Source of the DNA: Patescibacteria group bacterium
Lineage (GTDB): Bacteria; Patescibacteriota; Minisyncoccia; Phycocordibacterales; JAKAEA01
Length of the DNA stretch: 64,000 nucleotides
Direction: 5' to 3'
NCBI GenBank assembly: GCA_040387855.1
Contig: JAZKCY010000001.1
Span: 445,857 to 509,856 of the forward strand
Below the pieces are notes generated by a model. The model saw nothing but the letters and a program-made list of their open reading frames with translations. It did not search any database and was not told the origin of the DNA. Position 1 is the first letter of the stretch; each line of letters starts with the position of its first letter. Both the position numbers and the translations under genes were made by a program. This document shows, one piece after another, positions 4,596 to 56,583 of this stretch.

Positions 4596-4639
4596 AGAGC
4601 AATTATATCATGGGTTTAGTTTGAGATAAAAAACTAGTA

Positions 4640-4926
4640 TAAAAAAACCGATCGTTAACACGAGCGGCGGGCTTTGTGGTGTTACCTCTCACTTTTCTGA
4701 GGGGTGTGAGCTTCTCGTTCCATACGATCGGCTCGTGAGTTCGCTAGAAGGGCAACGAAACCGGTTATACATGCAATCATCAGTAACCGGAGTAGGTTAA
4801 GCTTCCAGCGGGGAATTGGACAGTCCAAAGGTAGTGCTCCAAAAGATATGGTGAACTAGGGCGACATGCATTATGACATGCTCTGTGTATAAGTCAAATC
4901 AATGTGTGTATAAAAAAACCGTCGTG
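4640..4926 (-). ncRNA. Candidate structured GC-rich RNA or leader between two similar terminator hairpins, upstream of the VanY-like gene
   Basis: About 280 bp, ORF-free, GC-rich. On the minus strand there is TTGACT-N17-CATAAT near 4880-4855, and a hairpin plus U-run at about 4640-4665 (CCG.TCG...CGA.CGG then TTTTTTT). A similar hairpin at 4908-4930 terminates the upstream gene. No match recognised to SRP, tmRNA, RNase P or ydaO consensus. Confidence 0.3.
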
Positions 4927-5535
4927 CTAGACGATCGGAATGAATGTGGAACTGGCGAATTGGTGGTCGTCGGTGAACTCGAGTATCACTGATTCGCCGC
5001 AACCAATGAGTGCCCGAAACGGCATCTCGCTCCATGCGTGTTCAGCGAAGCTCACGAGGGGGTTGTGACTGACCAACAGGGCTGTTTCTTCTAAGCCCAA
5101 GCCTTCCACAACCTTCTTTGATCCCTCGTGTACTCGCAAGATGCAGTTGTCGATGAGCCTCGGCCACATTCTCCGAAGATCAGTTGGAGTAAGCATTGGA
5201 GCGGTGAGCATCGGTCTGTCACCCAGCCACGTGGCGTACTCGTGATCCCATTCGTCGGGGTCACAAGGATCTAAGCTCTCGTTTGGGGTACGTACTGCAC
5301 CGACCTTAAGCCCAAGTGTGTGCACCAGAATCTCCATCGAATCAACTGCCCGAGGGTAGGTGGAACAATGAACTTCTGTGATACAGCCCCAAAGCTTGAG
5401 TCCTTGTGCAGCACGCATCATCTTAAGTCGACCAGGGTTGGTAAGCGGAGCATCGCGCTGCCACACCCCATACTTCCGAACATCAGGCTGGAATTCAGCC
5501 TGACCACATCTCATGACGATGAGATACTTTGACAT
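4927..5535 (-). CDS. Histidine phosphatase superfamily (phosphoglycerate mutase-like) protein; GC-rich
   Basis: N-terminus LIVMRCGQAEF resembles the RHG phosphohistidine motif but has Cys in place of His. GC is much higher than in flanking genes. Confidence 0.45.
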   Translation of the reverse strand: MSKYLIVMRCGQAEFQPDVRKYGVWQRDAPLTNPGRLKMMRAAQGLKLWGCITEVHCSTYPRAVDSMEILVHTLGLKVGAVRTPNESLDPCDPDEWDHEYATWLGDRPMLTAPMLTPTDLRRMWPRLIDNCILRVHEGSKKVVEGLGLEETALLVSHNPLVSFAEHAWSEMPFRALIGCGESVILEFTDDHQFASSTFIPIV

Positions 5536-5574
5536 TGGTTCAGTTCTCCTGCACGGGTTTATCGTTCTGACACT

Positions 5575-6726
5575 GTGTCCTCCAGGAATATACTCATAAA
5601 TCTGAGGCTAGTCAACGTATGTTATACTATTTTTATGACTACGATTCTTATAGTTTTAATTATTGTATTAACTGCAATTTTGGGGGCAATGGTTGCTGTT
5701 ATTTTGAATTTAATGAAACGGCAGGATGAACCAAAAGAAGATATTGGAGTAAAACTATTGCTCGAGCAAATTAATGAATTAAACAGGACTGTAGACGGCA
5801 AAATGAGCGATTTGTCTCGCACTATGGACTTTAAAATTACTGAATCTGGCAAAATGATGAATGAATCCGTGCGTATGCAATTTACTGAATCTTCAAAACT
5901 AATTCAGAATGTGACTTCAGGACTCACAAAGCTCGATGAAACCAATAGACAAGTAGTTTCCTTTGCGGATCAACTTCAAAGTTTGTCAGATATATTGAAA
6001 AATCCAAAACAACGAGGGATTTTAGGTGAATATTATTTAGAGACTCTTTTAAAGAACGTGTTGCCACCAGGAAGCTTTCAAATGCAATATGGCTTTACGG
6101 ATGGCACTATTGTCGATGCTGCGGTGTTTGTGAAAGACAAAGTAATCCCAGTAGATTCTAAGTTTTCACTTGAAAACTATAATAGATTGGTTGAAACAAA
6201 AGATGAATTAGAACGAGATAGGCTTGAAAAAGTATTTGTGAGTGATTTGAAGAAAAGAATAGAAGAAACCTCAAAATATATTCAGCCCAAAGAAGGAACT
6301 ATGGATTTTGCATTCATGTTTATTCCTCATGAAGCTATCTACTATGATTTGCTCACAAATAGAATTGGTGTATTAAAAGAAGAATCTGAAAATTTAATCC
6401 AGAGAGCAGCAAGTAAGTATCACGTAATTATAGTTTCCCCAACAAGCTTTTTGGCATATTTACAGACAGTATTGCAAGGATTGAAAGCACTTCAGATTGA
6501 AGAATCAGTAAAGGGTATTATTAAAAATGTGGGTGAGCTTCAAAAGCATTTAAAGACATACGAGGAATATCATGGAAAGATGGGAAATGCATTGGGAACT
6601 GTCGTAAGTCACTTTAATAATTCTCATAAAGAATTTAAAAAGATAGATAAAGATATCTTAAGAATTTCAGGTGAGTCGCTTCAGATAGAAGCTCTTACAC
6701 TCGATAAGCCAGAAATGGAGGAATAA
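5575..6726 (+). CDS. rmuC: DNA recombination protein RmuC
   Basis: N-terminal TM, long coiled coil, and a C-terminal RmuC-like region (HVIIVSPTSFLAYLQTV). The real start may be the internal Met near 5635. Confidence 0.6.
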   Translation: MSSRNILINLRLVNVCYTIFMTTILIVLIIVLTAILGAMVAVILNLMKRQDEPKEDIGVKLLLEQINELNRTVDGKMSDLSRTMDFKITESGKMMNESVRMQFTESSKLIQNVTSGLTKLDETNRQVVSFADQLQSLSDILKNPKQRGILGEYYLETLLKNVLPPGSFQMQYGFTDGTIVDAAVFVKDKVIPVDSKFSLENYNRLVETKDELERDRLEKVFVSDLKKRIEETSKYIQPKEGTMDFAFMFIPHEAIYYDLLTNRIGVLKEESENLIQRAASKYHVIIVSPTSFLAYLQTVLQGLKALQIEESVKGIIKNVGELQKHLKTYEEYHGKMGNALGTVVSHFNNSHKEFKKIDKDILRISGESLQIEALTLDKPEMEE

Positions 6727-6791
6727 AAAAAGCGTACACCAAAGTGTAGCGCTATCCCATTTTGTTTGTACAATATCTTGCTCTTGATGGG

Positions 6792-7691
6792 TTACCAGAG
6801 CTTGATGGTGAGGCCGACGCCGATTGCACCGTCGAACTCCCTCGAGTCCGACATGCTGGTGATGGGCGTGCCCATCTTCCACACGGGGAGATCCAGCGTG
6901 ATGCTGTCGGAGAGCTTCCACGCGACCCCGCCGCTGTAGAACAGCATGAGGCCCGAATCGAATCCGTAGAAGCCAGGGTCAGCTAGCACCGCGAGCCGGT
7001 GCTGAAAGCTGACGCTCTCGTTGACCTGCCAGATGTGGTTGACCCCCACCTGGACCTGGCCCTCGAACCCTTCGTTGGTCGCGTTCGCGGACAGGTAGGC
7101 CTCGGGCTTCAGGAAGGGCTTGATCGTGTGGCCGTTGCCCAGATCGAGATCTAGGCTCAGCTCGCCGTACATGTAGATCAAGTCGCCCTTGGTCCCGCTT
7201 AGAAGCCGGGGGGCGGCGAGATCGAAGTACGACACGCCAACGTTCACGTTGACGTCACGTACTTTGCCGACCCACCCGAGGGTGTAGTCGACCTCGTCCC
7301 CGAAATTGGAGTTGAGGTTGGCGTCGTCGAGCCCGGCGGAGTGCCAGAGATCGATGTAGACGCCGTTAGGGAACGTCACGAACACGTCGGACTGCAGCAC
7401 CGGATCGGTGTGGTAGACCGATCCGTTTGCCCCGTAGTACTGAGACCACAGACGGGTCGTCAGCACGACGGACGGGTGAGGGGCCCCTTTGAACACCTCA
7501 TCCGGCTTCCGCGGTTCGTCGGCCTTCTTCGGCGCGACGGTGGGGTCGGTGTGCTCATGCACTCCGCCGCCAGTCGACTTCTCGGTCTTGATCTGCTCGA
7601 ACCGCTCGAGCCCGTCGTTCTGGTTGCCGTTGCAACCCAACAGGAACGACAGGCCGAGCACCAACGCCGCAACGTACATTCGCGTACGCAT
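6792..7691 (-). CDS. Lipoprotein with outer-membrane beta-barrel-like features; GC-rich (about 60%)
   Basis: Signal peptide with lipobox LLGC, alternating hydrophobic beta-strand patterns (VNVNVGVSYFDL), and a C-terminus ending ...GVGLTIKLW with an aromatic terminal residue as in OMPs. GC is far above the window background. Confidence 0.5.
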   Translation of the reverse strand: MRTRMYVAALVLGLSFLLGCNGNQNDGLERFEQIKTEKSTGGGVHEHTDPTVAPKKADEPRKPDEVFKGAPHPSVVLTTRLWSQYYGANGSVYHTDPVLQSDVFVTFPNGVYIDLWHSAGLDDANLNSNFGDEVDYTLGWVGKVRDVNVNVGVSYFDLAAPRLLSGTKGDLIYMYGELSLDLDLGNGHTIKPFLKPEAYLSANATNEGFEGQVQVGVNHIWQVNESVSFQHRLAVLADPGFYGFDSGLMLFYSGGVAWKLSDSITLDLPVWKMGTPITSMSDSREFDGAIGVGLTIKLW

Positions 7692-7917
7692 AAACGATAC
7701 CTTCTCCCCACAAATGGGGCTTCCGAAACCATAGGGACATTACAAATCCGTTTGTGAAACTAACATAAATCTATAGATGAGTCAATAGTGCCATTCCCAT
7801 ATACGAAAAGGCCCACACAATCTAATGTGTGGCCTCTATTCCTTTCTTTTGTAAAAGGTTGTTTATTGAAACGAAAGAACGATGTAGTGCGTTGAACTTA
7901 CTAGGTTTCTTCTCTTC

Positions 7918-8475
7918 TTAGGCTTTTTCCATCGAGCGCCTGGCGCACAAGGCGAGGACTGTGAAGAATAGGATAGCCACAGCTCCGATCACGAGTACCC
8001 TAACTTGTACGGATGTCAAAATGACCTGAGTGCCGATGACGCTGGTGAGTAGGGTAAGCGGGACGACGAGTCCTGCCACCAACATCATCTTTCCAACTAA
8101 GCTCACGATCTTCATATCGTCTCCACGCGGGAATCCTCCGAGGAAGGTTCCTAACGTGAGGAATCCGAGCATGAGGCCGTAGTGGCCTGATGTGCGGATG
8201 AACATCTCCCACTGATAGTCGTACTGACCGACTATCCATGGAATGAAGACATGCAGAGCTGTGAAGACAAAGAATGTGCCATATAGGGCTTTCATCATCT
8301 TCGAGATAGCGGGGCGCATTCTCATCATCAGAGTGCTCGGCTGGCTTGCTTTTGACTCGGTTTCCTCAGCCGGTTTGAGCATGGCTCTTGTAGCAATTGC
8401 TGCTAGAACTAGCAGAAACGCCATAAAGGCCAAGCCGACGGTCATCGCCATCAAATTCTGATGCTCCTGACTCAT
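7918..8475 (-). CDS. Hypothetical integral membrane protein (about 5 TM); elevated GC
   Basis: Hydrophobic segments throughout; no recognised family. Confidence 0.4.
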   Translation of the reverse strand: MSQEHQNLMAMTVGLAFMAFLLVLAAIATRAMLKPAEETESKASQPSTLMMRMRPAISKMMKALYGTFFVFTALHVFIPWIVGQYDYQWEMFIRTSGHYGLMLGFLTLGTFLGGFPRGDDMKIVSLVGKMMLVAGLVVPLTLLTSVIGTQVILTSVQVRVLVIGAVAILFFTVLALCARRSMEKA

Positions 8476-8639
8476 TGCAAACTCCCATAAATGTGTGAGA
8501 ACGAGAAAATCATTGTGAACTGACTATTGTTGATTATATCATATTTTACATAATGAGTCAAGCGTGATAAATCTTGCTCTTTAATTGATTCAAGATCAAT
8601 ACTTGCGTTTTTATTGAAAATAAGTACAATAGTATCACT

Positions 8640-8986: not shown

Positions 8987-9038
8987 TTGAGCTATATATT
9001 GACTTTTTCATATAAACGTGTAAAATAGTACGCTGTCG

Positions 9039-9323
9039 TTGCGAAATGCACGAAGTGTTCTTTTGTTCTTTCTCGGAGTGTTCGGAATGGTGTCTTCCCC
9101 TCAACCAATGACTGGATCAGACAAACAAAGGTTGGTACGAGAGTACCAGCACGAGCGGCTCAATGAGCTGAGTCTCCAGTCCATCATCAATGACGAGAAT
9201 TCGTCTGCGGCGGAAGTTGCGGCTGCTCGAGAGGTGCTACACAGCATTGAGCAGCAGCAGCAGAACTACCAGAACCATGTCGCGCGGCGGCAGGATCTAC
9301 AAATCGTCATTGACGATTCATAA
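9039..9323 (+). CDS. Hypothetical small protein; elevated GC; start uncertain
   Basis: 94-aa ORF with a Gln-rich tail (EQQQQNYQNH); no recognised family. Confidence 0.3.
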   Translation: MRNARSVLLFFLGVFGMVSSPQPMTGSDKQRLVREYQHERLNELSLQSIINDENSSAAEVAAAREVLHSIEQQQQNYQNHVARRQDLQIVIDDS

Positions 9324-9376
9324 CGCCAAACGAAGCGCCACGGAGCGTTCGAGCAATCGAACCTCTGTGGCAATTT

Positions 9377-9997
9377 TTATTTCCGATTATTTAAAGCGTT
9401 TTTGATAGTATCTGAATCTGAGTATTCTAATTCTGTACCTGTTGAAATTCCTCGGCCTAAGTGTGAGATTTTAATAGAATGCTCAAGTGCTTGAGGTTTT
9501 AACAAATTTTCTAAGTAATCAATAGTATTTTCGCCTTCTGCAGTGGCATTCAATGCCATAATAACTTCTTTGAGCTCACCAGACTGGGCACGAGTTTCAT
9601 ACATACTTAAAAGTTCTCGTTGACGTATACGAGTTTCAGGATTTTTTTCAAGAATTGGTACTGCACCTCCTAATACAAAATAAAGACCTGAGAAAGATCG
9701 AGTTTTTTCTATATTCTCTAAATCCACATCTCGGCTCACGATCATAAGAATACTTCGGTCGCGTGAAGGACTGCAGCAAATATCACAGAGTGTTGCCGGA
9801 GTATGTTGATCTTGAAAAAATCTAAAGCACGAACTACAGATTCTTATATCTCTTTTTAAATCTACAATCATTCTACTCAACTGCTGCAGATATTCAGGAT
9901 TGCGGGTGAGGAGATGGTAGACAAAACGTCGAGCTTGGCGAGGACCAATCCCTGGGAAATCAGAAAAATACTCCGTGAGTTTCTGGATGCTGTTCAT
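9377..9997 (-). CDS. recR: Recombination protein RecR
   Basis: N-terminal HhH (PGIGPRQARRFVYHLL), C4 zinc finger (CSSC...C..C) and Toprim region. Confidence 0.9.
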   Translation of the reverse strand: MNSIQKLTEYFSDFPGIGPRQARRFVYHLLTRNPEYLQQLSRMIVDLKRDIRICSSCFRFFQDQHTPATLCDICCSPSRDRSILMIVSRDVDLENIEKTRSFSGLYFVLGGAVPILEKNPETRIRQRELLSMYETRAQSGELKEVIMALNATAEGENTIDYLENLLKPQALEHSIKISHLGRGISTGTELEYSDSDTIKNALNNRK

Positions 9998-12936: not shown

Positions 12937-14205
12937 TTGAGATACTTTTCCCATATGTCATCTTTTGGAAAAAATCTTAGTAAAAATATATTAGTTGCAG
13001 TGCTAGGTGTTGGACTTATTGGAAGTGCTTTTGTAATTGGTGCTCGATATGGTGCAGTAAATAGTACCTTTGCTGGCACAAACGTTGCGCCAAATATTGT
13101 AAATAAGGATAGTGGTCAGCCTGAGAATGTTGACTTCTCATTGTTTTGGAGAGCATGGGATCACCTCAATGAAAAATTTGTGGAGACTCATGGCACAAGC
13201 AGCAAAGCTATAACAGATGAAGATAAAGTGTATGGAGCCATTAAAGGGCTAGCAGAATCTTTGGGCGATCCATACACCACGTTTTTTCCTCCACAAGAAA
13301 ACAAAGATTTTCAAGCTGAAATCAGTGGTAACTTTGAAGGTGTAGGAATGGAAGTAGGAACTCGAGATGATATTCTTACTGTTATTGCACCTCTTAAAAA
13401 CACTCCAGCCTTTAAAGCAGGGGTAAAAGCAGGAGATAAAATTCTTAAAATCGACAATACTGTTTCAACTAATATGAGTGCTGATGAAGCCGTAAGTCTT
13501 ATTAAAGGAAAGAAGGGAACTACGGTAACTCTTACATTGCTTGGAACAAATGATTCACAGCCACGAGAAGTAAAAATCGTTCGAGATCGAATTGAAATCC
13601 CAACGCTTGATACAGAGCTTCGATCAGATGGTATTTATGTAATTAAGCTCTATAGCTTTACAAGTAACTCAGCAAATCTCTTTAGAGGAGCTCTTGAGCA
13701 GTTTGTAAAATCTAAAAATAATAAGCTGATTATCGACCTTAGAGGAAATCCAGGAGGATATCTCGATGCTGCTATTGATATGGCAAGTTGGTTCTTACCT
13801 GCAGATAAAATTGTAGTACAAGAAGATAAGGGATCTAATTCAGAAAAGATAGTATATAAGAGTAAGGGATACAATATATTTAATAATAATCTTAAGGTTG
13901 TTGTTCTTGTAGATGGTGGTTCTGCATCAGCTTCGGAAATTCTCGCAGGTGCATTGCAAGAGAACGGGGTAGGAAAACTTGTAGGAACAAAGACCTTCGG
14001 AAAAGGTTCAGTGCAAGAGCTTGTTAACCTTAATCCTGATACATCATTAAAGATCACTATTGCTCGATGGCTTACTCCAAAAGGCAACACTATTTCAGAA
14101 CAAGGCCTTAAACCTGATGTAGAAGTGAAAGTAACAGATGCCGATATTGAGAAGAAAATAGATGCACAGCTCAATAAGGCGGTAGAATTGCTTTTAGCCA
14201 AATAA
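12937..14205 (+). CDS. ctpA: C-terminal processing peptidase (S41, Ctp/Prc) with PDZ domain
   Basis: PDZ region plus the S41 catalytic region GGSASASEILAGALQENG. Confidence 0.85.
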   Translation: MRYFSHMSSFGKNLSKNILVAVLGVGLIGSAFVIGARYGAVNSTFAGTNVAPNIVNKDSGQPENVDFSLFWRAWDHLNEKFVETHGTSSKAITDEDKVYGAIKGLAESLGDPYTTFFPPQENKDFQAEISGNFEGVGMEVGTRDDILTVIAPLKNTPAFKAGVKAGDKILKIDNTVSTNMSADEAVSLIKGKKGTTVTLTLLGTNDSQPREVKIVRDRIEIPTLDTELRSDGIYVIKLYSFTSNSANLFRGALEQFVKSKNNKLIIDLRGNPGGYLDAAIDMASWFLPADKIVVQEDKGSNSEKIVYKSKGYNIFNNNLKVVVLVDGGSASASEILAGALQENGVGKLVGTKTFGKGSVQELVNLNPDTSLKITIARWLTPKGNTISEQGLKPDVEVKVTDADIEKKIDAQLNKAVELLLAK

Positions 14206-14714: not shown

Positions 14715-14750
14715 TAAAAAAACCTTCAGAATATTCTGAAGGTTTTTTTA
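14715..14750. terminator. Bidirectional rho-independent terminator between rplI (+) and rpmA (-)
   Basis: A-run, then ACCTTCAGAA-TATT-CTGAAGGT, then T-run. Confidence 0.7.
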
Positions 14751-14761
14751 TGATTTCTTTA

Positions 14762-15034
14762 TTACTTAACGTTTACAATCTTTCTAGTAGAAGTAGAACC
14801 GTCAAAGTTTTGCTTTCGCTTATTTTTGAATTCTACAACTCCGTCTTTAAGAGCGAAGATTGTGTGATCCTTACCCAATCCAACGTTCTTTCCTGGGATA
14901 ACTTCTGTACCACGCTGTCGGACAATGATATGTCCTACACCTACAGTTTCTAGATGGTTTGCCTTTACTCCAAGGTACTTTGGATTTGAATCGTTAAGGT
15001 TTTTGGCTGATCCGCCGGCTTTTTTGGTTGCCAT
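14762..15034 (-). CDS. rpmA: 50S ribosomal protein L27
   Basis: [24 protein letters not shown]...[28 protein letters not shown] is the L27 signature. Confidence 0.9.
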
Positions 15035-15069
15035 AGTTCGTAATTACTACCGTTTGTTGATAATTAAAT

Positions 15070-15474
15070 GTGGTCATGATTATACCTGATAGTCTAGAAA
15101 AACACAAGATTAGCCTTAAAACTCTTGTCTCTCAGGCTTTTTTACCAATCATAGCTGTGTTGCTTATATCAGGCACAATTGGTGCTTGGAAAGTGTATCA
15201 GATATACAAAAATAGGGAACAAATAACTATAGAATACCCAAAAAAAACTCAAGAACCTCAGAATAATGCTGAACTCGGTATGAAATATGTTACTTCTACG
15301 TCAACAATGAGTAGTATAGATAAAGGGTTGTTCGTTGCCTCGCGTGGTGGGAAAAGTTATTATAAACCTACATGCGCCGGTGCTAAAAAGTTGTCTGAAA
15401 AGAACAAAATTTGGTTTCAATCCAAGGAAGAAGCAGAACGTTTTGGATATAAGCTTGCAAAGAATTGCAAGTAG
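15070..15474 (+). CDS. Membrane-anchored protein with Ada-like zinc-binding domain (Ada_Zn_binding-like)
   Basis: C-terminus YYKPTCAGAKKLSEKNKIWFQSKEEAERFGYKLAKNC matches the Ada N-terminal metal-binding pattern (C..C...NV.FF.S..EA...G(F/Y)RPCKRC-like). One TM segment. Confidence 0.45.
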   Translation: MVMIIPDSLEKHKISLKTLVSQAFLPIIAVLLISGTIGAWKVYQIYKNREQITIEYPKKTQEPQNNAELGMKYVTSTSTMSSIDKGLFVASRGGKSYYKPTCAGAKKLSEKNKIWFQSKEEAERFGYKLAKNCK

Positions 15475-15486
15475 CAAAATAGTTAG

Positions 15487-15738
15487 ATGAAAAGAATTGC
15501 ACACAAAACAGCATTACATATAGGCGGATGGCTATTCATAGGAATTGGTCTTCTTGGCTTGATCCTCCCACTTATCCCGGGCTTTGTTTTTATTGCCTTA
15601 GGTGTTTATATTATCTCCTTTGCTTCTTTGTGGTTGTATACTAAAATTGATCATATCAAACTCAGGTATCCAAAAGTTGGTATTCATTTTGATAAAGTAG
15701 ATAAAGCTATAAGCCGGTTTATTAAGAAGGCCCACTAA
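15487..15738 (+). CDS. DUF454/YbaN-like small inner membrane protein
   Basis: GWLFIGIGLLGLILPLIPGFVFIALG is characteristic of YbaN. Confidence 0.5.
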   Translation: MKRIAHKTALHIGGWLFIGIGLLGLILPLIPGFVFIALGVYIISFASLWLYTKIDHIKLRYPKVGIHFDKVDKAISRFIKKAH

Positions 15739-15758
15739 TACTCAGATAGAGTTCCACA

Positions 15759-16037
15759 ATGAAACGACACCATCAGGTATACATTTACACATCTCACGAC
15801 TGCAAAATGTGTGAGCTCACTAAAAACTTTTTTAGAGACGCAGGTATAGAATTCATAGAAATAGACATAACTCACGATAAAAACGCCGAGATTAAAATGC
15901 TGGAAATTAGTAATCAGAACGATACTCCTGTTGTGGAAATCGACGGACGAGCTATTTCAGGCTATCATCCAGAAATCTATGAAACTATATTAAGTAGAGA
16001 TAGGGAAAGAGAAAAGGATAGAGATAAAAAAGACTAA
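15759..16037 (+). CDS. Glutaredoxin/NrdH-like redoxin
   Basis: CKMC (CxxC) near the N-terminus and thioredoxin-fold spacing (TPVVEIDGRAISGY). Confidence 0.6.
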   Translation: MKRHHQVYIYTSHDCKMCELTKNFFRDAGIEFIEIDITHDKNAEIKMLEISNQNDTPVVEIDGRAISGYHPEIYETILSRDREREKDRDKKD

Positions 16038-16040
16038 TAT

Positions 16041-17057
16041 ATGATCCAACCATTTTCACAGGGACTCGCTCAGGATATTTTAAAGGAAATACAGAAAACT
16101 CAGAATATAATAATGCATTGTCATCCAGGTCCCGATGCCGATAGCATGGGAAGCACTTTAGCAATGAAATTTGCTTTGCAGGCAATGGGAAAATCAGTCA
16201 CCCTAATTAAAGGTGATTCTGATCTTCCAAAATATTTATCGAGCTTACCTGGCTACGATTCAGTAGTTCTTAAAAATATATTTGAACTAGATCTTACACA
16301 ATTTGATCTTTATTTAATACTCGATACTGGAGGGATCAATCAGATTTCTAAGATTAAAAATGTAGAATTCCCAGAAAGTCTTCAAACTATAGTTATTGAT
16401 CACCATATCTCAAATAAAGGCTTTGCAAAGATTAATCTCGTAGATGCTACCTATCCTTCTACCTGTGAAATAGTGTTTGAACTATTTAAAGAATGGGGAA
16501 TAGAGATTACTCATGATATAGCACTATGCTTGTATGCCGGAATGTACTCAGATACTGGCGGATTTGTGTATCCCACAACATCGCCTCGCACTATGCACAT
16601 TGCAGCTGCTTTAGCTGATAAAGCTCCTGAGTTTAATAGTATGATTTTTACCATGATGAATAATAATACTCCAGGACGACTCCAAGCTCAGGGTCTACTG
16701 TATTCATCTATTGAAACCTGGTTCTCAAATTCAATTGCTGTATCATCACTAAGCTATGAAGATATCCAAAAGATAGATGCAAAGCCAGATGATATAGCAG
16801 GACTTGATGTTGCCAACAATTTGAAGTCTGTTGTGGGGTGGAATGTTGGGATTTCAATGATAGAAACCGAACCTGGTGTTGTAAAGATAAGCAGTAGAAG
16901 CAGAGATGGGGATGTGTGGGATGTTTCTAAGATTATGACTGCGATGGGAGGAGGGGGACACAAGGCTGCTGCTGGTGGACGAGTAGAAGGAACCATAGAA
17001 GAAGCCAAAACTAAGCTAAAAAGTGCAATTTTAGAGGTATATCCCGACCTAAAATAG
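16041..17057 (+). CDS. nrnA: DHH-DHHA1 phosphoesterase (NrnA-like bifunctional oligoribonuclease/pAp phosphatase)
   Basis: HCHPGPDADSMGS, DHH (VIDHHIS) and DHHA1 GGGH (GGGGHKAAAG). Confidence 0.75.
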   Translation: MIQPFSQGLAQDILKEIQKTQNIIMHCHPGPDADSMGSTLAMKFALQAMGKSVTLIKGDSDLPKYLSSLPGYDSVVLKNIFELDLTQFDLYLILDTGGINQISKIKNVEFPESLQTIVIDHHISNKGFAKINLVDATYPSTCEIVFELFKEWGIEITHDIALCLYAGMYSDTGGFVYPTTSPRTMHIAAALADKAPEFNSMIFTMMNNNTPGRLQAQGLLYSSIETWFSNSIAVSSLSYEDIQKIDAKPDDIAGLDVANNLKSVVGWNVGISMIETEPGVVKISSRSRDGDVWDVSKIMTAMGGGGHKAAAGGRVEGTIEEAKTKLKSAILEVYPDLK

Positions 17058-17196
17058 TGTTCTGTTTCGGAGCTCAAAAAACAGCTGAAAACGCTTAAAA
17101 ATACCTGATGAGCTTTTTGCTCAGTTTGCTCAAATAATATGGCTCTAAAAGGCCATTTTTTGATACATGTATACAACTAAAACATGCTCAAAATCC

Positions 17197-17224
17197 TTGA
17201 CTTTTTGGGTATATATGCTATACT
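17197..17224 (+). promoter_or_regulatory. Sigma-70-like promoter TTGACT-N16-TATACT
   Basis: Near-consensus -35 and -10, followed by a ~190-nt untranslated leader before the 17415 ORF. Confidence 0.55.
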
Positions 17225-17414
17225 AGTATCAAATCAGACATTAGTTCTGGTTTTTTAATTTATTGGTTTTTGGTTCTAGATCGGTACTTAAGTGAGATTC
17301 TGTCGGAGTCTCATGTACTATCTAAGATCAACTATCAGTAACACCATTCGGTTCCCAAGGTTATATGGTGTCTAGTAACTAAAAAACAGGCTTATTTTAA
17401 ATTTAACTGCTAGT

Positions 17415-17855
17415 TTGGCAATTCTTCTTTCTTCAGTCACTGGAGTGAACGGTACAGCAATTGCTACCAATGCCGTTGAAAACACTCCTATCGTTGAAGC
17501 AGCATCTGCTCAGATTCTTTCACAAAAGAATTCACAGAGTAAGTCAGCTGCAGCAACTACTTCTGTTGAAACATACGTTCGAGCATACTTTGAAGAGACA
17601 CCTATTCTCGCCGAAGTTGCACGATGTGAATCTCGATTTCGACAGCATGGTAAGGACGGAGAAGTATTACGAGGAATGATGGTTGATGATGACCTAGGTG
17701 TTATGCAAATCAACGATTACTTCCACGGAAAGACTGCAGACAAACTTGGTCTCGATCTCCACACTCTTGAAGGTAACCTAGCATATGCTAAGTATCTTTA
17801 TGAGAAGCAAGGACTCCAGCCATGGTCAGCATCTGCTCCATGTTGGGATAAGTAA
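17415..17855 (+). CDS. Secreted transglycosylase-like (Rpf/SLT-like) domain protein; start uncertain
   Basis: ARCESRFRQHG...GVMQIN...WSASAPCW resembles the lysozyme-like transglycosylase CES...GL.QI pattern. Paralogous to 24431..25021. The ORF track starts it at a TTG. Confidence 0.45.
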   Translation: MAILLSSVTGVNGTAIATNAVENTPIVEAASAQILSQKNSQSKSAAATTSVETYVRAYFEETPILAEVARCESRFRQHGKDGEVLRGMMVDDDLGVMQINDYFHGKTADKLGLDLHTLEGNLAYAKYLYEKQGLQPWSASAPCWDK

Positions 17856-17876
17856 TCATTCTTGATTACTCAAACA

Positions 17877-17912
17877 AAACCCCGTACTCGAAAGAGTGCG
17901 GGGTTTTGTGTT
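17877..17912 (+). terminator. Rho-independent terminator
   Basis: AAAACCCCGTACTC-GAAA-GAGTGCGGGGTTTT followed by a T-run. Confidence 0.75.
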
Positions 17913-17938
17913 GTCAGATTTTGTAGTACTCTTATTTC

Positions 17939-18397
17939 ATGAACTACTGGATCCTAAAATCAGAAGCCGATTGCTACTCAATCGATGACATGCAGAAAGA
18001 CAAGAAAACTGCATGGGTAGGTATTCGCAATTATCAGGCTCGGAATTTTATGCGCGATAGTATGAAGATAGGGGATTTATGTCTCTTCTATCATTCAAGC
18101 TCTGAGCCTACTGGGGTATTCGGTGTAGTAAAAGTGGTAAGCAAGCCTCATCCTGATGAAACCCAATTTGATCCTAAAGACGATCATTATGATCCAAAAT
18201 CCACACTAGAAAAGCATCAGTGGCAATGTGTAGACGTGCAGTTTGTCTCAAAGTTTAAGAATCCAATAAGCCTTTCTGAGATAAAGATCCGACCAGAACT
18301 AGAGGGCATAGCTCTAGCTCAACGGGGTAGTAGATTGTCGGTAATGCCACTTTCTGAAGCTCATTTTAAGGTCATTGAAAAGCTCGGAACTAAGTGA
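17939..18397 (+). CDS. EVE (PUA-like) domain protein
   Basis: YWILKSEADCYSIDDMQKDKKTAWVGIRNYQARNFMRDSMKIGDLCLFYHSS...QFDPKDDHYDPKS matches the EVE/DUF55 signature almost end to end. Confidence 0.8.
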   Translation: MNYWILKSEADCYSIDDMQKDKKTAWVGIRNYQARNFMRDSMKIGDLCLFYHSSSEPTGVFGVVKVVSKPHPDETQFDPKDDHYDPKSTLEKHQWQCVDVQFVSKFKNPISLSEIKIRPELEGIALAQRGSRLSVMPLSEAHFKVIEKLGTK

Positions 18398-18554
18398 ATT
18401 ATGAAGAAACGAGCGCTAGCATTATAGTGGCTTAATGTAAGCTTAATCTATTCTTTAAGAGATCTTTATACCTTATCTATTTAAATATGGCTGGGCCTGT
18501 AATTTATGGCCGACTTATGCGTCATTTATTCTGTTATACACTAACAGCATATAC

Positions 18555-20051
18555 ATGAAAGTAATTACTACCAACGATTTAATAGGAGCAATACAGCCAC
18601 AGGCTAAGCTTGAAAAACAACTTAAAAATTTCGATCTTTCGTACCTTGCATCATTGGCACAAGATTATGTAGTGAATAAACCTATGGTAGAAATGCCAAA
18701 GGATATTCAGGCTGTTAAGACATACTCACGAAACCCAACACTTAAGCAGCGATCATTCTACAAGAAAGCTGAAATGGCAGGACGAGAACTCGTACGAGAA
18801 GGAAAGGTTGGTGCATTCCTTGTAGCAGGAGGACAGGGAACACGACTTGGATACGATGGACCAAAGGGAGAATATAGTGTTACACCAGTGAAGAACAAAT
18901 CTCTTTTCCAGGTATTTGCGGAACAGCTTCTTTCATATTCAAAGGAAGCAGGAAAGACTATCCCTTGGTATATCATGACAAGTGATATCAACCGAACAGC
19001 AACAGAAAAATTCTTCGTTGAAAACAAATATTTCGGTTACAACAAATCTGATATATTCTTCTTCGAACAAGGAATGATGCCTGCATTTGATATGACAACT
19101 GGTAAGCTTTTGCTCGCAGAGAAAGATAGTCTTGCTCTAAGTCCAGACGGACACGGAGGGTCTCTTAAAGCACTTCGCGTAAGTGGAGCACTAGCTGATA
19201 TGCAGAAACGAGGTATCGAACACCTATCATACTTCCAGGTAGACAACCCAATGGTGCATGCTATTGATTACCGATTCTTGGGAATGCACGCTCTTACCGA
19301 CAGTGAAATGAGTAGTAAAGTTGTGCCTAAGGTAAGTGCAACAGAAAAGGTAGGTAACTTCGTAGTTGCTGATGGCAAAGTACAGGTTATTGAATATTCT
19401 GATATGCCAGAAGAACTTGCAAAGACAACTAACTCAGATGGATCACTTAAATTCAATGCAGGATCAATTGCTATTCATGCTCTCTCAGTAAAATTTATCG
19501 AACGACTTACATCAGATGGAAACCTCAAGCTTCCATGGCACCGAGCAGAAAAGAAAGTTGCTTTCCTCGATGCTTCAGGAGCACTCGTGAAGCCAGAAAA
19601 GCCAAATGCAGTAAAGCTTGAACAATTTATTTTCGACGCACTTCCATTGGCACAAAATGCTTTGGTCTACGAAACAGATCGAGCAGAAGAATTTAGTCCA
19701 GTGAAGAATGCAGAAGGAAATGATTCACCACTTACCTCACGACAGCATCAGGTAGCCCGAGCACAGCGATGGCTTAAGGAATTGGGAGTAGAAGTACACC
19801 CAGAATCAGTTGTAGAAATCGATCCTTTGTTTGCAGCATCACGAGATCAGCTTAAAGCACGAAAGCTTGAAGTAGAACAGATTGTTGCAAGTGAAAAGAT
19901 TTATTTCGGACACACTGGAATCGAAAGTTCAGCAACACAACCAACAAGACTCCCTCTACCATTCGGAATGTTCAAAAAAGTTGGAGCTGTGTTTACAAAG
20001 TTTGCAAAGCGCGCACCGAAAGACACTGGAGCAGCAGGCGCACAAGCATAA
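18555..20051 (+). CDS. UDPGP-family nucleotide-sugar pyrophosphorylase (UDP-GlcNAc/UDP-glucose pyrophosphorylase-like)
   Basis: LVAGGQGTRLGYDGPKG is the UDPGP family signature; 498 aa. Confidence 0.7.
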   Translation: MKVITTNDLIGAIQPQAKLEKQLKNFDLSYLASLAQDYVVNKPMVEMPKDIQAVKTYSRNPTLKQRSFYKKAEMAGRELVREGKVGAFLVAGGQGTRLGYDGPKGEYSVTPVKNKSLFQVFAEQLLSYSKEAGKTIPWYIMTSDINRTATEKFFVENKYFGYNKSDIFFFEQGMMPAFDMTTGKLLLAEKDSLALSPDGHGGSLKALRVSGALADMQKRGIEHLSYFQVDNPMVHAIDYRFLGMHALTDSEMSSKVVPKVSATEKVGNFVVADGKVQVIEYSDMPEELAKTTNSDGSLKFNAGSIAIHALSVKFIERLTSDGNLKLPWHRAEKKVAFLDASGALVKPEKPNAVKLEQFIFDALPLAQNALVYETDRAEEFSPVKNAEGNDSPLTSRQHQVARAQRWLKELGVEVHPESVVEIDPLFAASRDQLKARKLEVEQIVASEKIYFGHTGIESSATQPTRLPLPFGMFKKVGAVFTKFAKRAPKDTGAAGAQA

Positions 20052-20073
20052 TTACATTTATCTACACTATACA

Positions 20074-20106
20074 AAAAACCACTGAGTGATGTCGGTGGTT
20101 TTTTGT
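20074..20106 (+). terminator. Rho-independent terminator
   Basis: AACCACTGAGTGATGTCGGTGGTT plus TTTTTG. Confidence 0.7.
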
Positions 20107-20159
20107 TTGCAATAAAAAATGTTCGTTACCGAGAAGGCAACGAACAATGTCATTCTAAA

Positions 20160-20567
20160 CTACGTCAGATTCCATGCGGCAGCTGCTTCGAATGGCTCCA
20201 GCTTCTTTAAGAGCTCTGGGATATCGCGTGCCACTGCTTCGAGCATCTGAGGCAAGTGTGTGAACACCAACTCCACATACTCACGCGCGATAGTTGGATT
20301 GTTGTTCTTTGTCGACGTTAAGAACAACTCGTTTGCTCCGTGGTGGCAGCTGATTGCTGCGTACCTAGCTCCAGGTTCGAAATACACAGACCAGTACAGA
20401 GTGCCTGTCGTGTATTTGTAGCTGCAACGCTCGGTTCCTGGAAGCTCTAGGAGTAGCCCCATGAGTATCTTTGACGTTGAGCCGATCCGGTACTTCATGA
20501 TGTCGAGGGCGTTAGAACCATCGATCATGACACTCATCAGCTGTTTGCCGTTCATCTTGCTGTGCAT
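20160..20567 (-). CDS. Hypothetical protein; GC-rich islet
   Basis: 135-aa ORF, GC about 50%; no family recognised. Confidence 0.35.
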   Translation of the reverse strand: MHSKMNGKQLMSVMIDGSNALDIMKYRIGSTSKILMGLLLELPGTERCSYKYTTGTLYWSVYFEPGARYAAISCHHGANELFLTSTKNNNPTIAREYVELVFTHLPQMLEAVARDIPELLKKLEPFEAAAAWNLT

Positions 20568-20714
20568 CGTACTCCTTATCTCTAAGGACCCTCTCGGGGA
20601 AGATGAGTGAACACGTTGCCCACAACACTCTTCTGATTGGTAGAGTATTGCAGAGACAATTATTAGTCAAATAAAAAAGCACACTCCTACATCGTAGGAC
20701 TGTGCTGTGGTGAA

Positions 20715-21374
20715 CTATCGTGGCGCATGCTTTACTCCGCCGTACTTGCTCGTAACGAAGGTCACCCAGGATGGATGATCGACATCTCGATCGGCAGCGA
20801 TCCATGCATCGTACCACCGCTGACACAAGGGACTTAGAATTTGTCCGTAGTTTTGGACCCACGGAACCATTCCGTACTCGGAAGTCTTTCCCCAGGTCAG
20901 CCGCTCGTACTCGATGAGAGCTGGGATGTCGCCGGGTGCGCAATCGGTCCAGCCGTTTGCGAGATGATCGAGCTCATGAAGCACACCCATGACGATCACT
21001 GATTGCCACATTGCATCACAGTTGATCCCATCCAACTTCTGCCTGATTGCATACTGTCGTTCAAGGGCAGGCATGTACAAATCGATGATGGGGATTCCGT
21101 TTCGTGCTGTGTTGGACATGCTGATCATCTTCTGATCACCAGCATAGGCCGGATGGTCAACGGCTATCACCTTGAGGTCGATGGGCCTTCCGTAGCACCT
21201 GCTGATCGTCAGGCGGTGGGAATCGAATCGCCGCTGAATCAGCTCGAGCGGGTAGGTGCACGAGATCAGCAGGTTGAGGATGGGCCCGATCCTCTGGTTG
21301 TAGAAATCCAACAACGCTGGGGGGAACACTTGTTCAGACATAGGATGCTTGCACTTTCTTTTTGGGAGTGACAT
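20715..21374 (-). CDS. Hypothetical protein with HExxH motif (possible zinc metallopeptidase-like); GC-rich islet; start uncertain
   Basis: VIVMGVLHELDHLANGW contains HELDH. The ORF track start at 21434 is probably too long; Met candidates at 21374 and 21341. Confidence 0.35.
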   Translation of the reverse strand: MSLPKRKCKHPMSEQVFPPALLDFYNQRIGPILNLLISCTYPLELIQRRFDSHRLTISRCYGRPIDLKVIAVDHPAYAGDQKMISMSNTARNGIPIIDLYMPALERQYAIRQKLDGINCDAMWQSVIVMGVLHELDHLANGWTDCAPGDIPALIEYERLTWGKTSEYGMVPWVQNYGQILSPLCQRWYDAWIAADRDVDHPSWVTFVTSKYGGVKHAPR

Positions 21375-21466: not shown

Positions 21467-21487
21467 TTATATTAGTAAAGAAGAAAA

Positions 21488-49106: not shown

Positions 49107-49460
49107 TTGGTCATGAAAACCAAATCGTTCGTGTTGGCGCCTCATCAGGTGAACTCCGGTACGGGCCAGACCATGATCAACCAGTGGCTCGCTGAACAGC
49201 AGCTCAAGATCACCAGCGTTCAGCTCACCGAGTTCAACGGTGATCTCATCGTGATCCTGATCTACAAGCCGCGCCTGACGCCGGCCAGGAACTTCGTCGA
49301 GGTGATGTCGTTCTCGATGGCCACGGTCAACGCGTACCAAATCGACACGAAGGTCGAGGCGGTCCAGCGCGAAAAGGGTGAATTTCACCACATCGAGTCC
49401 ATCGCCTTCAACGGCGAGCTCGTCATGGTGCTGCAGTACTCGAGAGTTGTTCCTCGTTAA
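49107..49460 (+). CDS. Hypothetical small protein with two ~35-aa internal repeats (DUF4177-like?); GC-rich islet
   Basis: The repeats end in ...FNGDLIVILIYKPR and ...FNGELVMVLQYSR. Confidence 0.4.
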   Translation: MVMKTKSFVLAPHQVNSGTGQTMINQWLAEQQLKITSVQLTEFNGDLIVILIYKPRLTPARNFVEVMSFSMATVNAYQIDTKVEAVQREKGEFHHIESIAFNGELVMVLQYSRVVPR

Positions 49461-49545
49461 ACAAGCAACAAGGTTTATGCATACCATTGAATGCATACGG
49501 TGCCAACGACGTTACTTGGCTGCTCTCGAGATGTAGTCTCGACTG

Positions 49546-49968
49546 ATGAGTCCAACAGGACGAAAGCAGAGTTTAGACCCGTTCTTTTATTTCAAGTGTT
49601 TCAGGAAAGGTAGGCATCGCGTGCCCGCAACGGATACGAACAAGAAGCAGACTGCTTCTCGCCCGAAGACCGACCGATATGGTATCGTGCTCGGTCAACC
49701 GCATCCCGATTTCGAGCAGGTCCGAGACCTGGCTCGGGAGCTCGGTGTGAAGATCGAGCAGGACGGCAAGCTGTGGACCATGACCGGATTCGACCGGAAG
49801 GTCTGCTACTACGCGCACAACCGGTGCGTTCGGCTCGAAAACGATGAGATGGGAAACCGCGAGGGAGACTTCGCGATCGCCATCACGCTGGTCCTGACGG
49901 GCAAGTACCCGCTGACCAACGACGAGCTGCGTCTCAGCCGCACGATCCGCCACATGCTCTACAAGTAG
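49546..49968 (+). CDS. Hypothetical protein; GC-rich islet
   Basis: 140-aa ORF followed by a hairpin plus T-run at about 49980-50003. Confidence 0.35.
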   Translation: MSPTGRKQSLDPFFYFKCFRKGRHRVPATDTNKKQTASRPKTDRYGIVLGQPHPDFEQVRDLARELGVKIEQDGKLWTMTGFDRKVCYYAHNRCVRLENDEMGNREGDFAIAITLVLTGKYPLTNDELRLSRTIRHMLYK

Positions 49969-50124
49969 TAGAATCTGACCAAGGTATGTACAACCTTTTT
50001 TGTACACGGTTTCGGAGTGCCGTTTCACTCCTACCCCCGCGCTTAATTGTGCGGGGTTTCGTTTTATATACACTTGATTTTGAGATAACGCTGTGTAGTA
50101 TGCTTAAGAGAGGAGGCTTGCCCA

Positions 50125-50294
50125 TGAAAAGTGAAGTCTTTGTATTCCCCATTGCCACACTCGTACTTGATGAGGTAGGCTGTGCCGTCGTTGATTGGCT
50201 CAATAAAAACGGAGGCACATTCGTGACGGCCTACGGCATGAATCACAACGGGAACATGCTTCTCATTGTGATTTATGATCCAGCACCGACTTAA
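50125..50294 (+). CDS. Hypothetical small protein carrying a single copy of the 49107-type repeat; GC-rich islet
   Basis: MKSEVFVF...AVVDWLNKNGGTFVTAYGMNHNGNMLLIVIYDPAPT aligns with both repeats of the 49107 protein. Followed by a terminator at 50287..50318. Confidence 0.4.
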
Positions 50295-52117: not shown

Positions 52118-52189
52118 GGATGAGCTCGCTATTGACTAATTGTTATATAAATTGTAGGATATTGATCGGTTCGTTTCAGGAGACCACGG

Positions 52190-52546
52190 ATGGTTGATAC
52201 CGTTCACATAGATCGCGGTGAAATTCATGACTGGGAAGAGCAGTTCCTAAAGGATCTGCTGGGATCTCTCTACAAGGACTACAAGGATCGAGATCTGCTG
52301 CCCAAGACTCGCAACCAGATGTCGGATGGTTTTGCTCGATTGAGGAGCCATCTGACTCCGCGCCAGTGGGACATTCTTCAGTCCAAGTATGGCATCAATG
52401 CGTATGCCTGGGGTCATGAAGACTCTGATGTTGCGGAAGAGTTTGAGTGCACGATCGATCATGTGAGATCTATCATCGCCCAAGCCTTCCAAAAACTTCG
52501 GCACCGATATGCCCCCTTGGACTGTTTGTTGGTCACCCCGGAGTAA
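52190..52546 (+). CDS. Small protein with sigma-70 region-4-like HTH; GC-rich islet
   Basis: LTPRQWDILQSKYGIN...EEFECTIDHVRSIIAQAFQKLRH resembles sigma region 4 / LuxR-type HTH. Confidence 0.4.
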   Translation: MVDTVHIDRGEIHDWEEQFLKDLLGSLYKDYKDRDLLPKTRNQMSDGFARLRSHLTPRQWDILQSKYGINAYAWGHEDSDVAEEFECTIDHVRSIIAQAFQKLRHRYAPLDCLLVTPE

Positions 52547-52574
52547 TCCGCAGGCTTCCCAGCTTTCGGATTTT

Positions 52575-55188: not shown

Positions 55189-55764
55189 TTAGTATTTTCG
55201 AATGACTGCTTTTACAACTGCCATAATTTGAAGTTCTTCATTTTCCGCGGGGACTATTGGTTCAAAGTTTACGTTTGCGGGATCGAGCCATATCTTGCCA
55301 TTTCTTTTCCGTAAGAACTTTACCGTATATCCTCCATCTATGAATGCCACCACTATGTCACCATCTTTTGCATCATTTCTCCGTTCTACTATCACCATGT
55401 CTCCGGGTTGAATTCCTGCTTCTATCATTGACTCACCGCTGACTCGTAACATGAATGTTGCTTCCCTATTTCCTATCAGATAATTGTCGAGGCTCATCGT
55501 TTCTGAAAGATCTTCTTCGGCTGGTGTTGGGAATCCGGCTTCAACTGCTCCGAGAATTTTTAATCCTCCTAAGAGCTTTTGCTCTGGCATCAGGCGTCCG
55601 TATGAGTCTTTAGAAACGAATCCGCCTTCTACCAACTTCGCTACTAATTTGAATACTGCGTTCTTAGATTTGAGCCCAAACATATCCATCATTTCGCGAT
55701 ACGAAGGCATGATTTTATTTTCTTCGTAAAACTTTTTTATTTTTTGTTTATATGTCTCGATCAT
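55189..55764 (-). CDS. lexA: LexA repressor (S24 peptidase)
   Basis: N-terminal wHTH, cleavage-site region and the S24 catalytic domain (GESMIEAGIQPGDMVIVERR...GYTVKFLRK). Start chosen at MIETYKQKIKK; the ORF track's longer start would run through the operator. Confidence 0.85.
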   Translation of the reverse strand: MIETYKQKIKKFYEENKIMPSYREMMDMFGLKSKNAVFKLVAKLVEGGFVSKDSYGRLMPEQKLLGGLKILGAVEAGFPTPAEEDLSETMSLDNYLIGNREATFMLRVSGESMIEAGIQPGDMVIVERRNDAKDGDIVVAFIDGGYTVKFLRKRNGKIWLDPANVNFEPIVPAENEELQIMAVVKAVIRKY

Positions 55765-55810
55765 GTTTTTTGTGATGATATGTGGCTCTTTTGTTATGTT
55801 GTAAGTATAG

Positions 55811-55826
55811 GTGAACGATCGTTCAC
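55811..55826. promoter_or_regulatory. LexA operator (Cheo-box type) GTGAACGATCGTTCAC, in the spacer of the lexA promoter
   Basis: A perfect 16-bp palindrome containing GAAC-N4-GTTC. On the minus strand it sits between TTGACG (-35) and TATACT (-10), about 45 bp upstream of the lexA start. Confidence 0.75.
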
Positions 55827-55905
55827 CGTCAATGTTAATAACGCATTGCAACACAAATTCTTACAAATAAAAAATCGCGCAGAGGCAGAATGCTTCTGTG
55901 CGATG

Positions 55906-56259
55906 TTAGACTCGGCTCGCGCCGCTGTCGAGCGCGTTGAGCTTGTTTCCTTCGTCACTTCTGTCGAGGATGACTTGCTCACCGCCATCACGTTGTACCA
56001 GCCGCTTCCCGCTGGACTTCTTGCCGCCGGCGCGACCGATCTTGGAGAAGTGTGGCGAGCCATACTTCTCCTTCACCCGCTGGCCACCTTTCTGACCGGC
56101 TGCTCGTGCCTCGTCGGGCGTGAACTCGTGGGCTGTGCCCTGGGCGTGGGCGGCGCGACCACCCAGACGGGCGATCTCTCTGTGCTTGTCGATGTGCATG
56201 GCAGCGAAGCCCCGTTTTGACCGTGGCGTTTCATCTTCTTGTTCGTCTGGCATATCCAT
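55906..56259 (-). CDS. KGG-repeat general stress protein (YciG/Con-10-like); GC-rich (about 60%)
   Basis: GFAAMHIDKHREIARLGGRAAH, GQKGGQ and RAGGKKSSGK are KGG-domain repeats. Confidence 0.6.
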   Translation of the reverse strand: MDMPDEQEDETPRSKRGFAAMHIDKHREIARLGGRAAHAQGTAHEFTPDEARAAGQKGGQRVKEKYGSPHFSKIGRAGGKKSSGKRLVQRDGGEQVILDRSDEGNKLNALDSGASRV

Positions 56260-56583
56260 CCTCGTACGAGCTATGGGACTGACACGACGGTGTCTCGAGA
56301 AACCCTATCACCAAGTATTATGCTCGTCAACAAAAATCACAGCAGCTTACCTGGGGGAAAGCTGCTGTGATTTGGTTGGGATTATTGAGTTGTTTTATTG
56401 TGAGAGAGTAAGTTTCCAAAGGTTTTCTGGAAATGATACGTTCTGCTTTTTACCGATACTGAAGAGAGTTGAAAAGAATTTTTTGATATCAAACATATGT
56501 TGTTTAATTAAGTATGTAATGTGAACTACATTCATCTTACCTATACAACATTAATAACGCATGAATCTGCTTTTTCTTACAAC

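Follow-up and report, generated by a model that had tools for sequence, protein, structure and literature searches.

The 64-kb stretch of DNA analysed here (the window) is part of a contig of 981,549 bp in a metagenome-assembled genome (MAG) of Paceibacteria-type Patescibacteria, members of the Candidate Phyla Radiation (CPR), and contains a series of short GC-rich segments, here called islets, which are probably single-gene accessory cassettes gained and replaced at intergenic positions. Segmentation with a 400-bp sliding GC window and a two-state hidden Markov model reveals eight such segments, 300-1228 bp long and 52-62% GC, which are dispersed across 52 kb and total 5,691 bp (8.9% of the window). 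These are islets 1 (4659-5586, 51.7% GC), 2a (6789-7738, 61.7%), 2b (7929-8449, 52.8%), 3 (9072-9371, 54.3%), 4 (20172-21399, 52.0%), 5 (49126-50056, 55.6%), 6 (52167-52569, 51.9%) and 7 (55876-56305, 61.2%). The first-pass annotation of this DNA had placed GC-rich islets within ~50 bp of these coordinates; the islets are real, except that the one given as 6740-8480 resolves into two, with 190 bp of AT-rich spacer between them, and the backbone, put at ~35% GC, has a computed value of 37.2%.

The compositional contrast is strong by every measure used. Backbone windows of 300 bp have a mean GC of 0.372 (standard deviation [SD] 0.037, maximum 0.483), and the islets lie 3.9-6.6 SD above this distribution. 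GC at third codon positions (GC3) is 0.57-0.87 in the ten main islet open reading frames (ORFs), with I5c as first delimited at 0.49, and 0.22-0.39 in the sampled backbone genes with the single exception of g48799 (0.45). Because GC at second positions (GC2) is alike in the two groups, the contrast is one of codon usage and not an effect of amino acid composition, and the islet ORFs have the coding signature GC3 > GC1 > GC2. Tetranucleotide usage of the islets correlates with that of the backbone at 0.43, compared with a mean of 0.80 for random backbone chunks of the same size, and it also suggests that there are at least two compositional classes of islets. Sliding-window GC, tetranucleotide and codon-usage analyses, all proposed as checks on the first-pass annotation, thus show the islet contrast and bear out a codon composition unlike that of the surroundings; the uniform GC that would have spoken against it was not found.

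Each islet has a sigma70-like promoter in an AT-rich upstream spacer followed by one to three ORFs, and forms a predicted self-contained transcription unit in which the GC-rich stretch and the ORF coincide to within tens of bases. At most islet ends a hairpin and T-run lie just 3' of the ORFs, in agreement with the earlier description of islets bounded by hairpin terminators. In islet 1, a leftward promoter (5615>5587) precedes the 202-residue I1 (4927-5535, minus strand, GC3 0.58), with a hairpin and T-run at 4936-4917. I1 matches His_Phos_1 (28.4 bits, cut-off 21.7), and inspection by eye of its N-terminus (LIVMRCGQAEF) places a cysteine where the RHG motif has its catalytic histidine; the presence of RCG in place of RHG makes activity doubtful, and I1 may be inactive, or a divergent histidine-phosphatase superfamily protein. 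To its left is a separate GC-rich mini-unit (4659-4926, minus strand) with a 48-aa hydrophobic ORF (4682-4828), its own promoter-like site (4897>4870) and its own terminator (about 4666-4640). The motif GTATAAAAAAACCG occurs in the terminators of both the mini-unit and islet 1 (4638-4651 and 4905-4918).

Islet 2a encodes I2a (6792-7691, minus strand, 299 aa, GC3 0.87), which has a lipoprotein signal peptide with an LLGC lipobox, a disordered linker, and a beta-barrel that ends with an aromatic residue (...TIKLW); a bidirectional hairpin terminator at about 6731-6753 is common to I2a and rmuC. An AlphaFold model built from an alignment of 29 homologues has predicted local distance difference test (pLDDT) values above 90 at residues 74-298 and forms a 12-14-strand barrel, for which Foldseek finds FapF, KdgM/NanC and OmpG (probability 1.0). 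No Pfam model matches I2a directly at E<0.1, and its homologues P0012 and P0013 pass PF09694 (29.2 and 24.9 bits; cut-off 24), for which P0157 has a precomputed domain. We confidently predict that I2a is an outer-membrane channel-type beta-barrel lipoprotein, probably of the Gcw_chp/TorF-like kind. Patescibacteria are regarded as single-membrane cells, and in such a cell I2a might be cargo without a function, or its target might be the outer membrane of a host. Islet 2b encodes the 185-residue I2b (7918-8475, minus strand), a multi-pass membrane protein, from a promoter at 8561>8533 (TTGACT-17-TATAAT with an extended TG) to a hairpin and T-run at 7832-7813. The motif TTGACTCAT (the reverse complement of ATGAGTCAA) is present at the -35 position upstream of both islets 2a and 2b (7777-7790 and 8553-8566), and may be only a local promoter consensus. 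The rightward ORF of islet 3 (9039-9323, with a likely ATG at 9087) encodes the small, Gln-rich I3, preceded by a promoter at 8999-9026 and followed by a strong terminator (9337-9371; -26.5 kcal/mol, z -6.1) that abuts the recR stop codon.

Islet 4 is a two-gene unit located between the PGM/PMM terminator (21459-21434) and the 3' end of the UDPGP gene, with a leftward promoter at 21428>21400 and a hairpin and T-run at 20146-20120. Its products are I4b (about 20715-21374, minus strand), which contains an HELDH motif and for which single-sequence structure prediction is unusable (pLDDT 31), and the 135-residue I4a (20160-20567, minus strand). Islet 5, if the lower-GC I5c is included, extends over 49126-50294 downstream of dinB, at a break in the conserved gene order. 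It encodes I5a (49107-49460, 117 aa, two modules of ~55 aa), I5b (49546-49968, 140 aa) and I5c (about 50124-50294, 56 aa, one such module), all on the plus strand, with a hairpin and T-run at 50035-50056. These had been described as tandem-repeat small proteins; the three modules are indeed present, but they share only about 23% identity and there is no tandem repeat at the DNA level. Islet 6 has a rightward promoter (52132-52160), the 118-residue I6 (52190-52546, plus strand), and a terminator hairpin (52546-52572) that abuts the rarA stop. Residues 54-105 of I6 match Sigma70_r4 (30.4 bits, cut-off 24.1), while all NCBIfam sigma models score far under their cut-offs and region 2 is not matched; because only region 4 is recognized, I6 is best described as a stand-alone region-4-like helix-turn-helix protein and not as a sigma factor. 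Finally, the 117-residue I7 (55906-56259, minus strand) is a KGG stress-motif protein (PF10685, 22.9 bits against 20.4), and the terminator of the FAD-oxidase gene (56337-56372; -29 kcal/mol, z -8.9) lies ahead of islet 7. Pfam identifies no family for I2b, I3, I4a, I4b or I5a-c, and every islet protein (locus tags V4519_025xx-027xx) is essentially alone in its own 90% identity cluster. The gene descriptions of the first-pass annotation mostly hold, including those of the His_Phos_1, Sigma70_r4 and KGG proteins and of the lipoprotein with an outer-membrane beta-barrel fold.

The genomic context of islets 1-3 was examined by a RecR-anchored scan of species-representative genomes, which provides 80 Paceibacteria/Parcubacteria MAG loci with RecR identities of up to 72%. 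The order g12937-g11516-dnaB-recR-rplU-rmuC-g1976 is kept in most of these, and the gaps between the genes vary from 11-60 bp up to over 2 kb. The recR>rplU gap is 11-2756 bp in the relatives and 422 bp in the window, where it corresponds to islet 3; the rplU>rmuC gap is 24-2318 bp in the relatives and 1913 bp in the window (islets 2a and 2b); and the rmuC>g1976 gap is 14-1612 bp in the relatives and 3131 bp in the window (islet 1 together with vanY and g2578). A tblastn search with 11 islet proteins gives no match in any of the 80 recR loci, and the flanking core genes match in 54-80 of them. The islets lie among core genes, as had been noted, and these are conserved and syntenic in relatives; the slots of islets 1-3, like that of islet 6 discussed below, are empty or otherwise filled in relatives with the same core order. 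Turnover at the slots is rapid, and where relatives have genes in them, these are for the most part unrelated and family-less, and frequently GC-rich. The variable rmuC>g1976 slot is also filled by the vanY-like carboxypeptidase gene (3714-4595) and g2578 (2578-3696), at 32-37% GC; the former is present in one of the 80 loci and the latter in none. As both are native in GC, the accessory genes in this region are not all GC-rich.

Islets 5-7 lie near lexA, rarA and dinB. A RarA-anchored metagenome scan returns 80 loci, but these belong to distant CPR lineages in which the gene order is not kept and are uninformative as to empty sites; LexA homologues at 79-86% identity provide five syntenic contexts (L165-L169) in which both LexA and RarA are 79-86% identical to those of the window. 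All share the order FAD-oxidase, variable gap, lexA, a 66-aa gene, NUDIX, rarA, ygjP, dinB, variable gap. The rarA stop and ygjP start abut or overlap in all five. In alignment A4, islet 6 stands out as ~460 bp inserted cleanly between rarA and its YgjP-like neighbour in the window, and neither junction has a repeat. The post-dinB slot that holds islet 5 is different in each of the five relatives, and in L165 it contains another GC-rich ORF, of 395 aa and no known family. Islet 7 behaves differently from islet 6: on the 1.0-Mb contig L169, from one relative, a KGG gene occupies the corresponding slot in the same orientation, with 59% aa identity to I7, 60.3% GC against a background of 42%, and a GC3 of 0.75 (0.69 for I7). 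The flanks resemble each other as well, as does the lexA promoter within them with the GAAC-N4-GTTC box, and there is no counterpart in the other four. I7 is in addition 50-68% identical to annotated KGG proteins on plasmids of Deinococcus, Acinetobacter and Methylomagnum; since KGG cores are conserved across phyla, the case for orthology of the two islet genes rests on position and flanks. Absence from the same position in relatives is therefore seen for islets 1-3 and 6, the islet 5 slot is variable in five of five, and islet 7 is present in one of five; the islet 4 slot lies outside the recR loci.

Several features of the lexA-dinB region accompany these islets. The lexA promoter of the window (55804-55832, minus strand, TTGACG-17-TATACT) is positioned 3' of islet 7 and contains the palindromic box GAACGATCGTTC, a GAAC-N4-GTTC sequence of the Gram-positive SOS-box type that is conserved with L169 (about 9900-9960). 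In the relatives, the run from lexA through the 66-aa gene, NUDIX, rarA and ygjP to dinB is tightly packed and co-directional, its genes touching or overlapping, and it resembles an SOS operon; islet 6, in the opposite orientation, breaks it in the window. A further single-gene insertion into the same conserved cluster is present in L166, where a PemK-family toxin gene (13407-13793) lies between ygjP and dinB.

Segments of this type are common in the relatives. The same segmentation applied to 1.217 Mb of recR loci yields 98 islets (4.3%), five of which are tRNA genes, and the best ORFs within them have raised GC3. By BLASTP, 90 of 104 islet ORFs, those of the window included, are singletons. 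About 80 of the 93 ORFs in relatives have no Pfam family, and the remainder include accessory-type genes for GNAT, ROK, class II dehydroquinase, GH18, pentapeptide, ABC ATPase and pilin proteins; some of these islets are local GC bumps in DnaB and MreB, and a PHROGs scan of the relatives' ORFs gives no coherent phage signal. Islands and individually transferred genes have moreover been reported to make up as much as 13% of genome length in Patescibacteria (mSystems 2025, PMC12455944). The first-pass view that recurrent insertions like these are unusual is thus not sustained for this clade.

Five islet families are shared among the relatives. Their GC3 is 0.62-0.72 against 0.27-0.39 for the core, in every genome, and their members are 37-75% identical where RecR is 81-95% and DnaB 90-96% identical. 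At L023 3828-4205, L042 3377-3727 and L065 3511-3861 there is a GC-rich gene of ~116-125 aa with 50-75% identity, where RecR and DnaB are 93-96% identical, and other relatives have unrelated GC-rich ORFs of similar size in this slot, which is also represented by L002, L004 and L056. It looks like a hyper-divergent replacement locus, with allele or gene replacement at a fixed position.

Possible sources were sought in an exhaustive HMMER search with a concatenate of six family-less islet proteins against 1.84 billion representatives. This identifies an I2a family of hundreds of members with a best identity of 38-41%, a single relative of I5b (P0017, 69%), and relatives of I4b at about 31%; I2b, I4a and I5a have no relatives among the top 150 matches (I2b finds only itself), and the top matches are on short anonymous contigs. 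A word-indexed homologue search with I2a and I2b concatenated returns only I2a itself, a profile search with the I2a family alignment gives nine anonymous matches, and tblastn gives no match for I2a, I1 or I6 against plasmids or for I6 against phages.

Because the islets are compositionally distinct, protein-coding, located in slots of variable content, missing from relatives, and devoid of mobile-element hallmarks, we favour an origin in which single-gene accessory cassettes, drawn from a pool with GC-richer codon usage, are repeatedly gained and replaced at intergenic slots, and regard this as the probable explanation. Of the three origins offered in the first-pass annotation, it is repeated horizontal acquisition that the empty or differently filled gaps of islets 1-3 and 6 support, and not a chimeric assembly or a shared insertion mechanism, both considered below. 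That Patescibacteria acquire accessory genes horizontally has been documented before (PMC12455944), and the islets are a further instance of this; what is notable here is the micro-cassette scale, the fixed slots, the predominance of family-less genes, the lasting GC-richness of some families, and the outer-membrane-type barrel.

Several observations weigh against gain from a GC-richer pool, at least in its simplest form. Slot-filling DNA differs from core GC by a mean of -0.004 (Wilcoxon p = 0.37), and a clade-wide tendency for such DNA to be GC-richer than the core is therefore rejected. The KGG islet and several of the relatives' families keep their slot and high GC3 across diverged genomes. 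The nearest I2a relatives with usable context (L161 and L164, 36-41% identity) are on AT-rich contigs of 33% and 41% GC, and one of the two is of AT-rich composition locally, near a pilin gene. The searches for donor lineages, a check that had been proposed, yielded no donor; with best outside identities of 31-69%, recent transfer from a sampled lineage appears unsupported. Empty-site evidence comes from islets 1-3 and 6 and is only indirect for islet 5, and the uptake and recombination steps are ones that we infer. Filled slots more than 0.08 above core GC make up 11%, those of this genome being at +0.10 and +0.14, and given that slot filling overall is not GC-enriched, the GC-rich islets are the upper tail of a broad distribution. 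The persistence of slot and high GC3 likewise indicates that a GC-rich islet is not simply a recent arrival yet to adjust to the composition of its host; the codon composition described as foreign is deviant in GC3, but is not to be read as recent.

Gain and replacement of cassettes would need a route. DNA could enter by natural competence or through a monoderm-type conjugation system, and a type IV secretion system of the latter kind is reportedly present in Patescibacteria. A cassette would first be inserted by illegitimate recombination, and homologous recombination within the core genes on either side could later spread it or exchange it between relatives. Published analysis of Patescibacteria infers exchange mostly within the phylum, with many single-gene events, and proposes competence and pili as the route (PMC12455944).

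The main alternative is that the islets are native, long-resident genes whose high GC3 is actively maintained by GC-biased gene conversion at slots prone to recombination or by selection on codons or mRNA. The KGG gene speaks in its favour, since slot, orientation, similar flanks and a high GC3 are common to the window and a relative whose core proteins are ~81% identical; the five GC-rich families of the relatives are likewise consistent with it, as is the failure to find donors. It fits poorly with the preponderance of singletons among the islet ORFs, with the lack of the window's islet proteins in all 80 syntenic loci, with the absence of islet 6 from each of the five close relatives, and with the finding that slot-filling DNA is on average not GC-enriched. 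Effects of biased conversion reported for bacteria are also much smaller than a shift in GC3 from ~0.3 to 0.7-0.87, which is far beyond them. We consider long residence unlikely as a general explanation of the islets.

A more speculative proposal, which we put forward tentatively and think rather improbable as a whole, is that a clade-wide Paceibacteria pool of hyper-divergent, persistently GC-rich, family-less genes is swapped as promoter-ORF-terminator micro-cassettes at fixed slots, their GC being maintained and not transitional. Biased gene conversion at hotspots of recombination might, for example, keep the GC high, as might a GC-rich reservoir not yet sampled (the host or an extrachromosomal element, for instance), and some of the cassettes, such as the I2a barrel lipoprotein, might act on the host envelope.

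The islets superficially resemble gene cassettes in being small, single-gene and sharply bounded, with a hairpin at one end, and they could in principle be cargo of an unrecognized site-specific mobile system, either integron-like cassettes or miniature elements mobilized in trans. The first-pass annotation had suggested searching the boundaries for shared short repeats. The boundaries have neither target duplications nor terminal repeats in common, inverted or direct, only generic terminator-like motifs, and the hairpins with T-runs behave as ordinary terminators, some of them shared with core genes. The sole pair of attC-core-like sites in the 64 kb is inside the I4b coding sequence and none is at an islet end. 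The islet neighbours that were scanned (XseA, a beta-lactamase-fold protein, a cupin, PGM/PMM, UDPGP, FAD oxidase and EVE) are all housekeeping genes, with no integrase, transposase or recombinase among them. A shared mechanism is thus without support, and we regard a dedicated mobile system as very unlikely.

Chimeric assembly, or an artefact of binning, has in its favour that the sequence is a MAG whose coverage by reads was not inspected. Against this, the conserved core order resumes beyond every islet, the islet boundaries fall at promoters and terminators of the islets themselves (some of the hairpins serving core genes as well), and the same architecture is present in dozens of independent MAGs. 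An independent Logan contig (SRR26324620_43485, 48,659 bp) is also 100% identical over 11,846 bp (window 14722-26567) and spans both junctions of islet 4. We therefore reject chimerism, which is exceedingly improbable. That the islets might be GC-rich structured RNA genes, as the five tRNA islets of the relatives could suggest, is refuted for the window, since Rfam (gathering thresholds) and ARAGORN detect no RNA family, tRNA or tmRNA, and ORFs with a coding signature and recognizable domains or folds occupy the islets.

The islets have the deviant composition and absence from relatives that characterize classical genomic islands, but they have no integrase or other mobility gene among the neighbours scanned, no tRNA insertion site in the window, no flanking direct repeats and no size above 10 kb. 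Like integron cassettes, or attC clusters without an integrase, they are compact single-ORF units with a 3' hairpin; unlike these, they have no attC at their ends, carry their own promoters, are dispersed and not arrayed, and have no link to intI in the window. The islets also resemble the replacement-type flexible islands and hypervariable regions of streamlined bacteria such as Prochlorococcus and SAR11, in which fixed core-flanked positions hold unrelated or highly divergent genes, often for envelope proteins, in otherwise very similar genomes. Conserved flanks, a slot length of 11-2756 bp and unrelated or highly divergent occupants are all found here. The islands of Prochlorococcus and SAR11 are typically several to tens of kb long and few per genome, whereas the islets are single genes spaced some 8-12 kb apart, and those that are conspicuous exceed the core in GC. 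The transferred genes described previously in Patescibacteria (PMC12455944) are from the same phylum, comprise a similar order of sequence (the figures given above for genome and window, respectively), and include many single genes; they differ in that the islets are 0.3-1.2 kb, almost all family-less, and in recurrent slots between syntenic core genes, and in that the islets were found by GC3 contrast and empty-site comparison and not as donor-recipient pairs, with no donor.

These findings are of interest in several respects. They describe at base-pair resolution how an ultra-small, streamlined and highly syntenic CPR genome gains or swaps ready-to-express single genes at intergenic slots without recognizable mobile elements, and they caution that GC-rich patches in such MAGs are not to be trimmed as contamination. 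The slots point to where strain-specific and possibly host-interaction genes of uncultured Patescibacteria may lie, and the persistently GC-rich families offer a test of mutation bias alone versus added recombination-linked processes.

Next to islet 4, the PGM/PMM gene is split, with domain I encoded at 22374-22781 and domains II-IV at 21488-22390 (minus strand); its counterpart is at L170 3787-5080. Because the independent Logan assembly has the same split, the gene is genuinely frameshifted or split, and an error specific to this MAG is not the cause.

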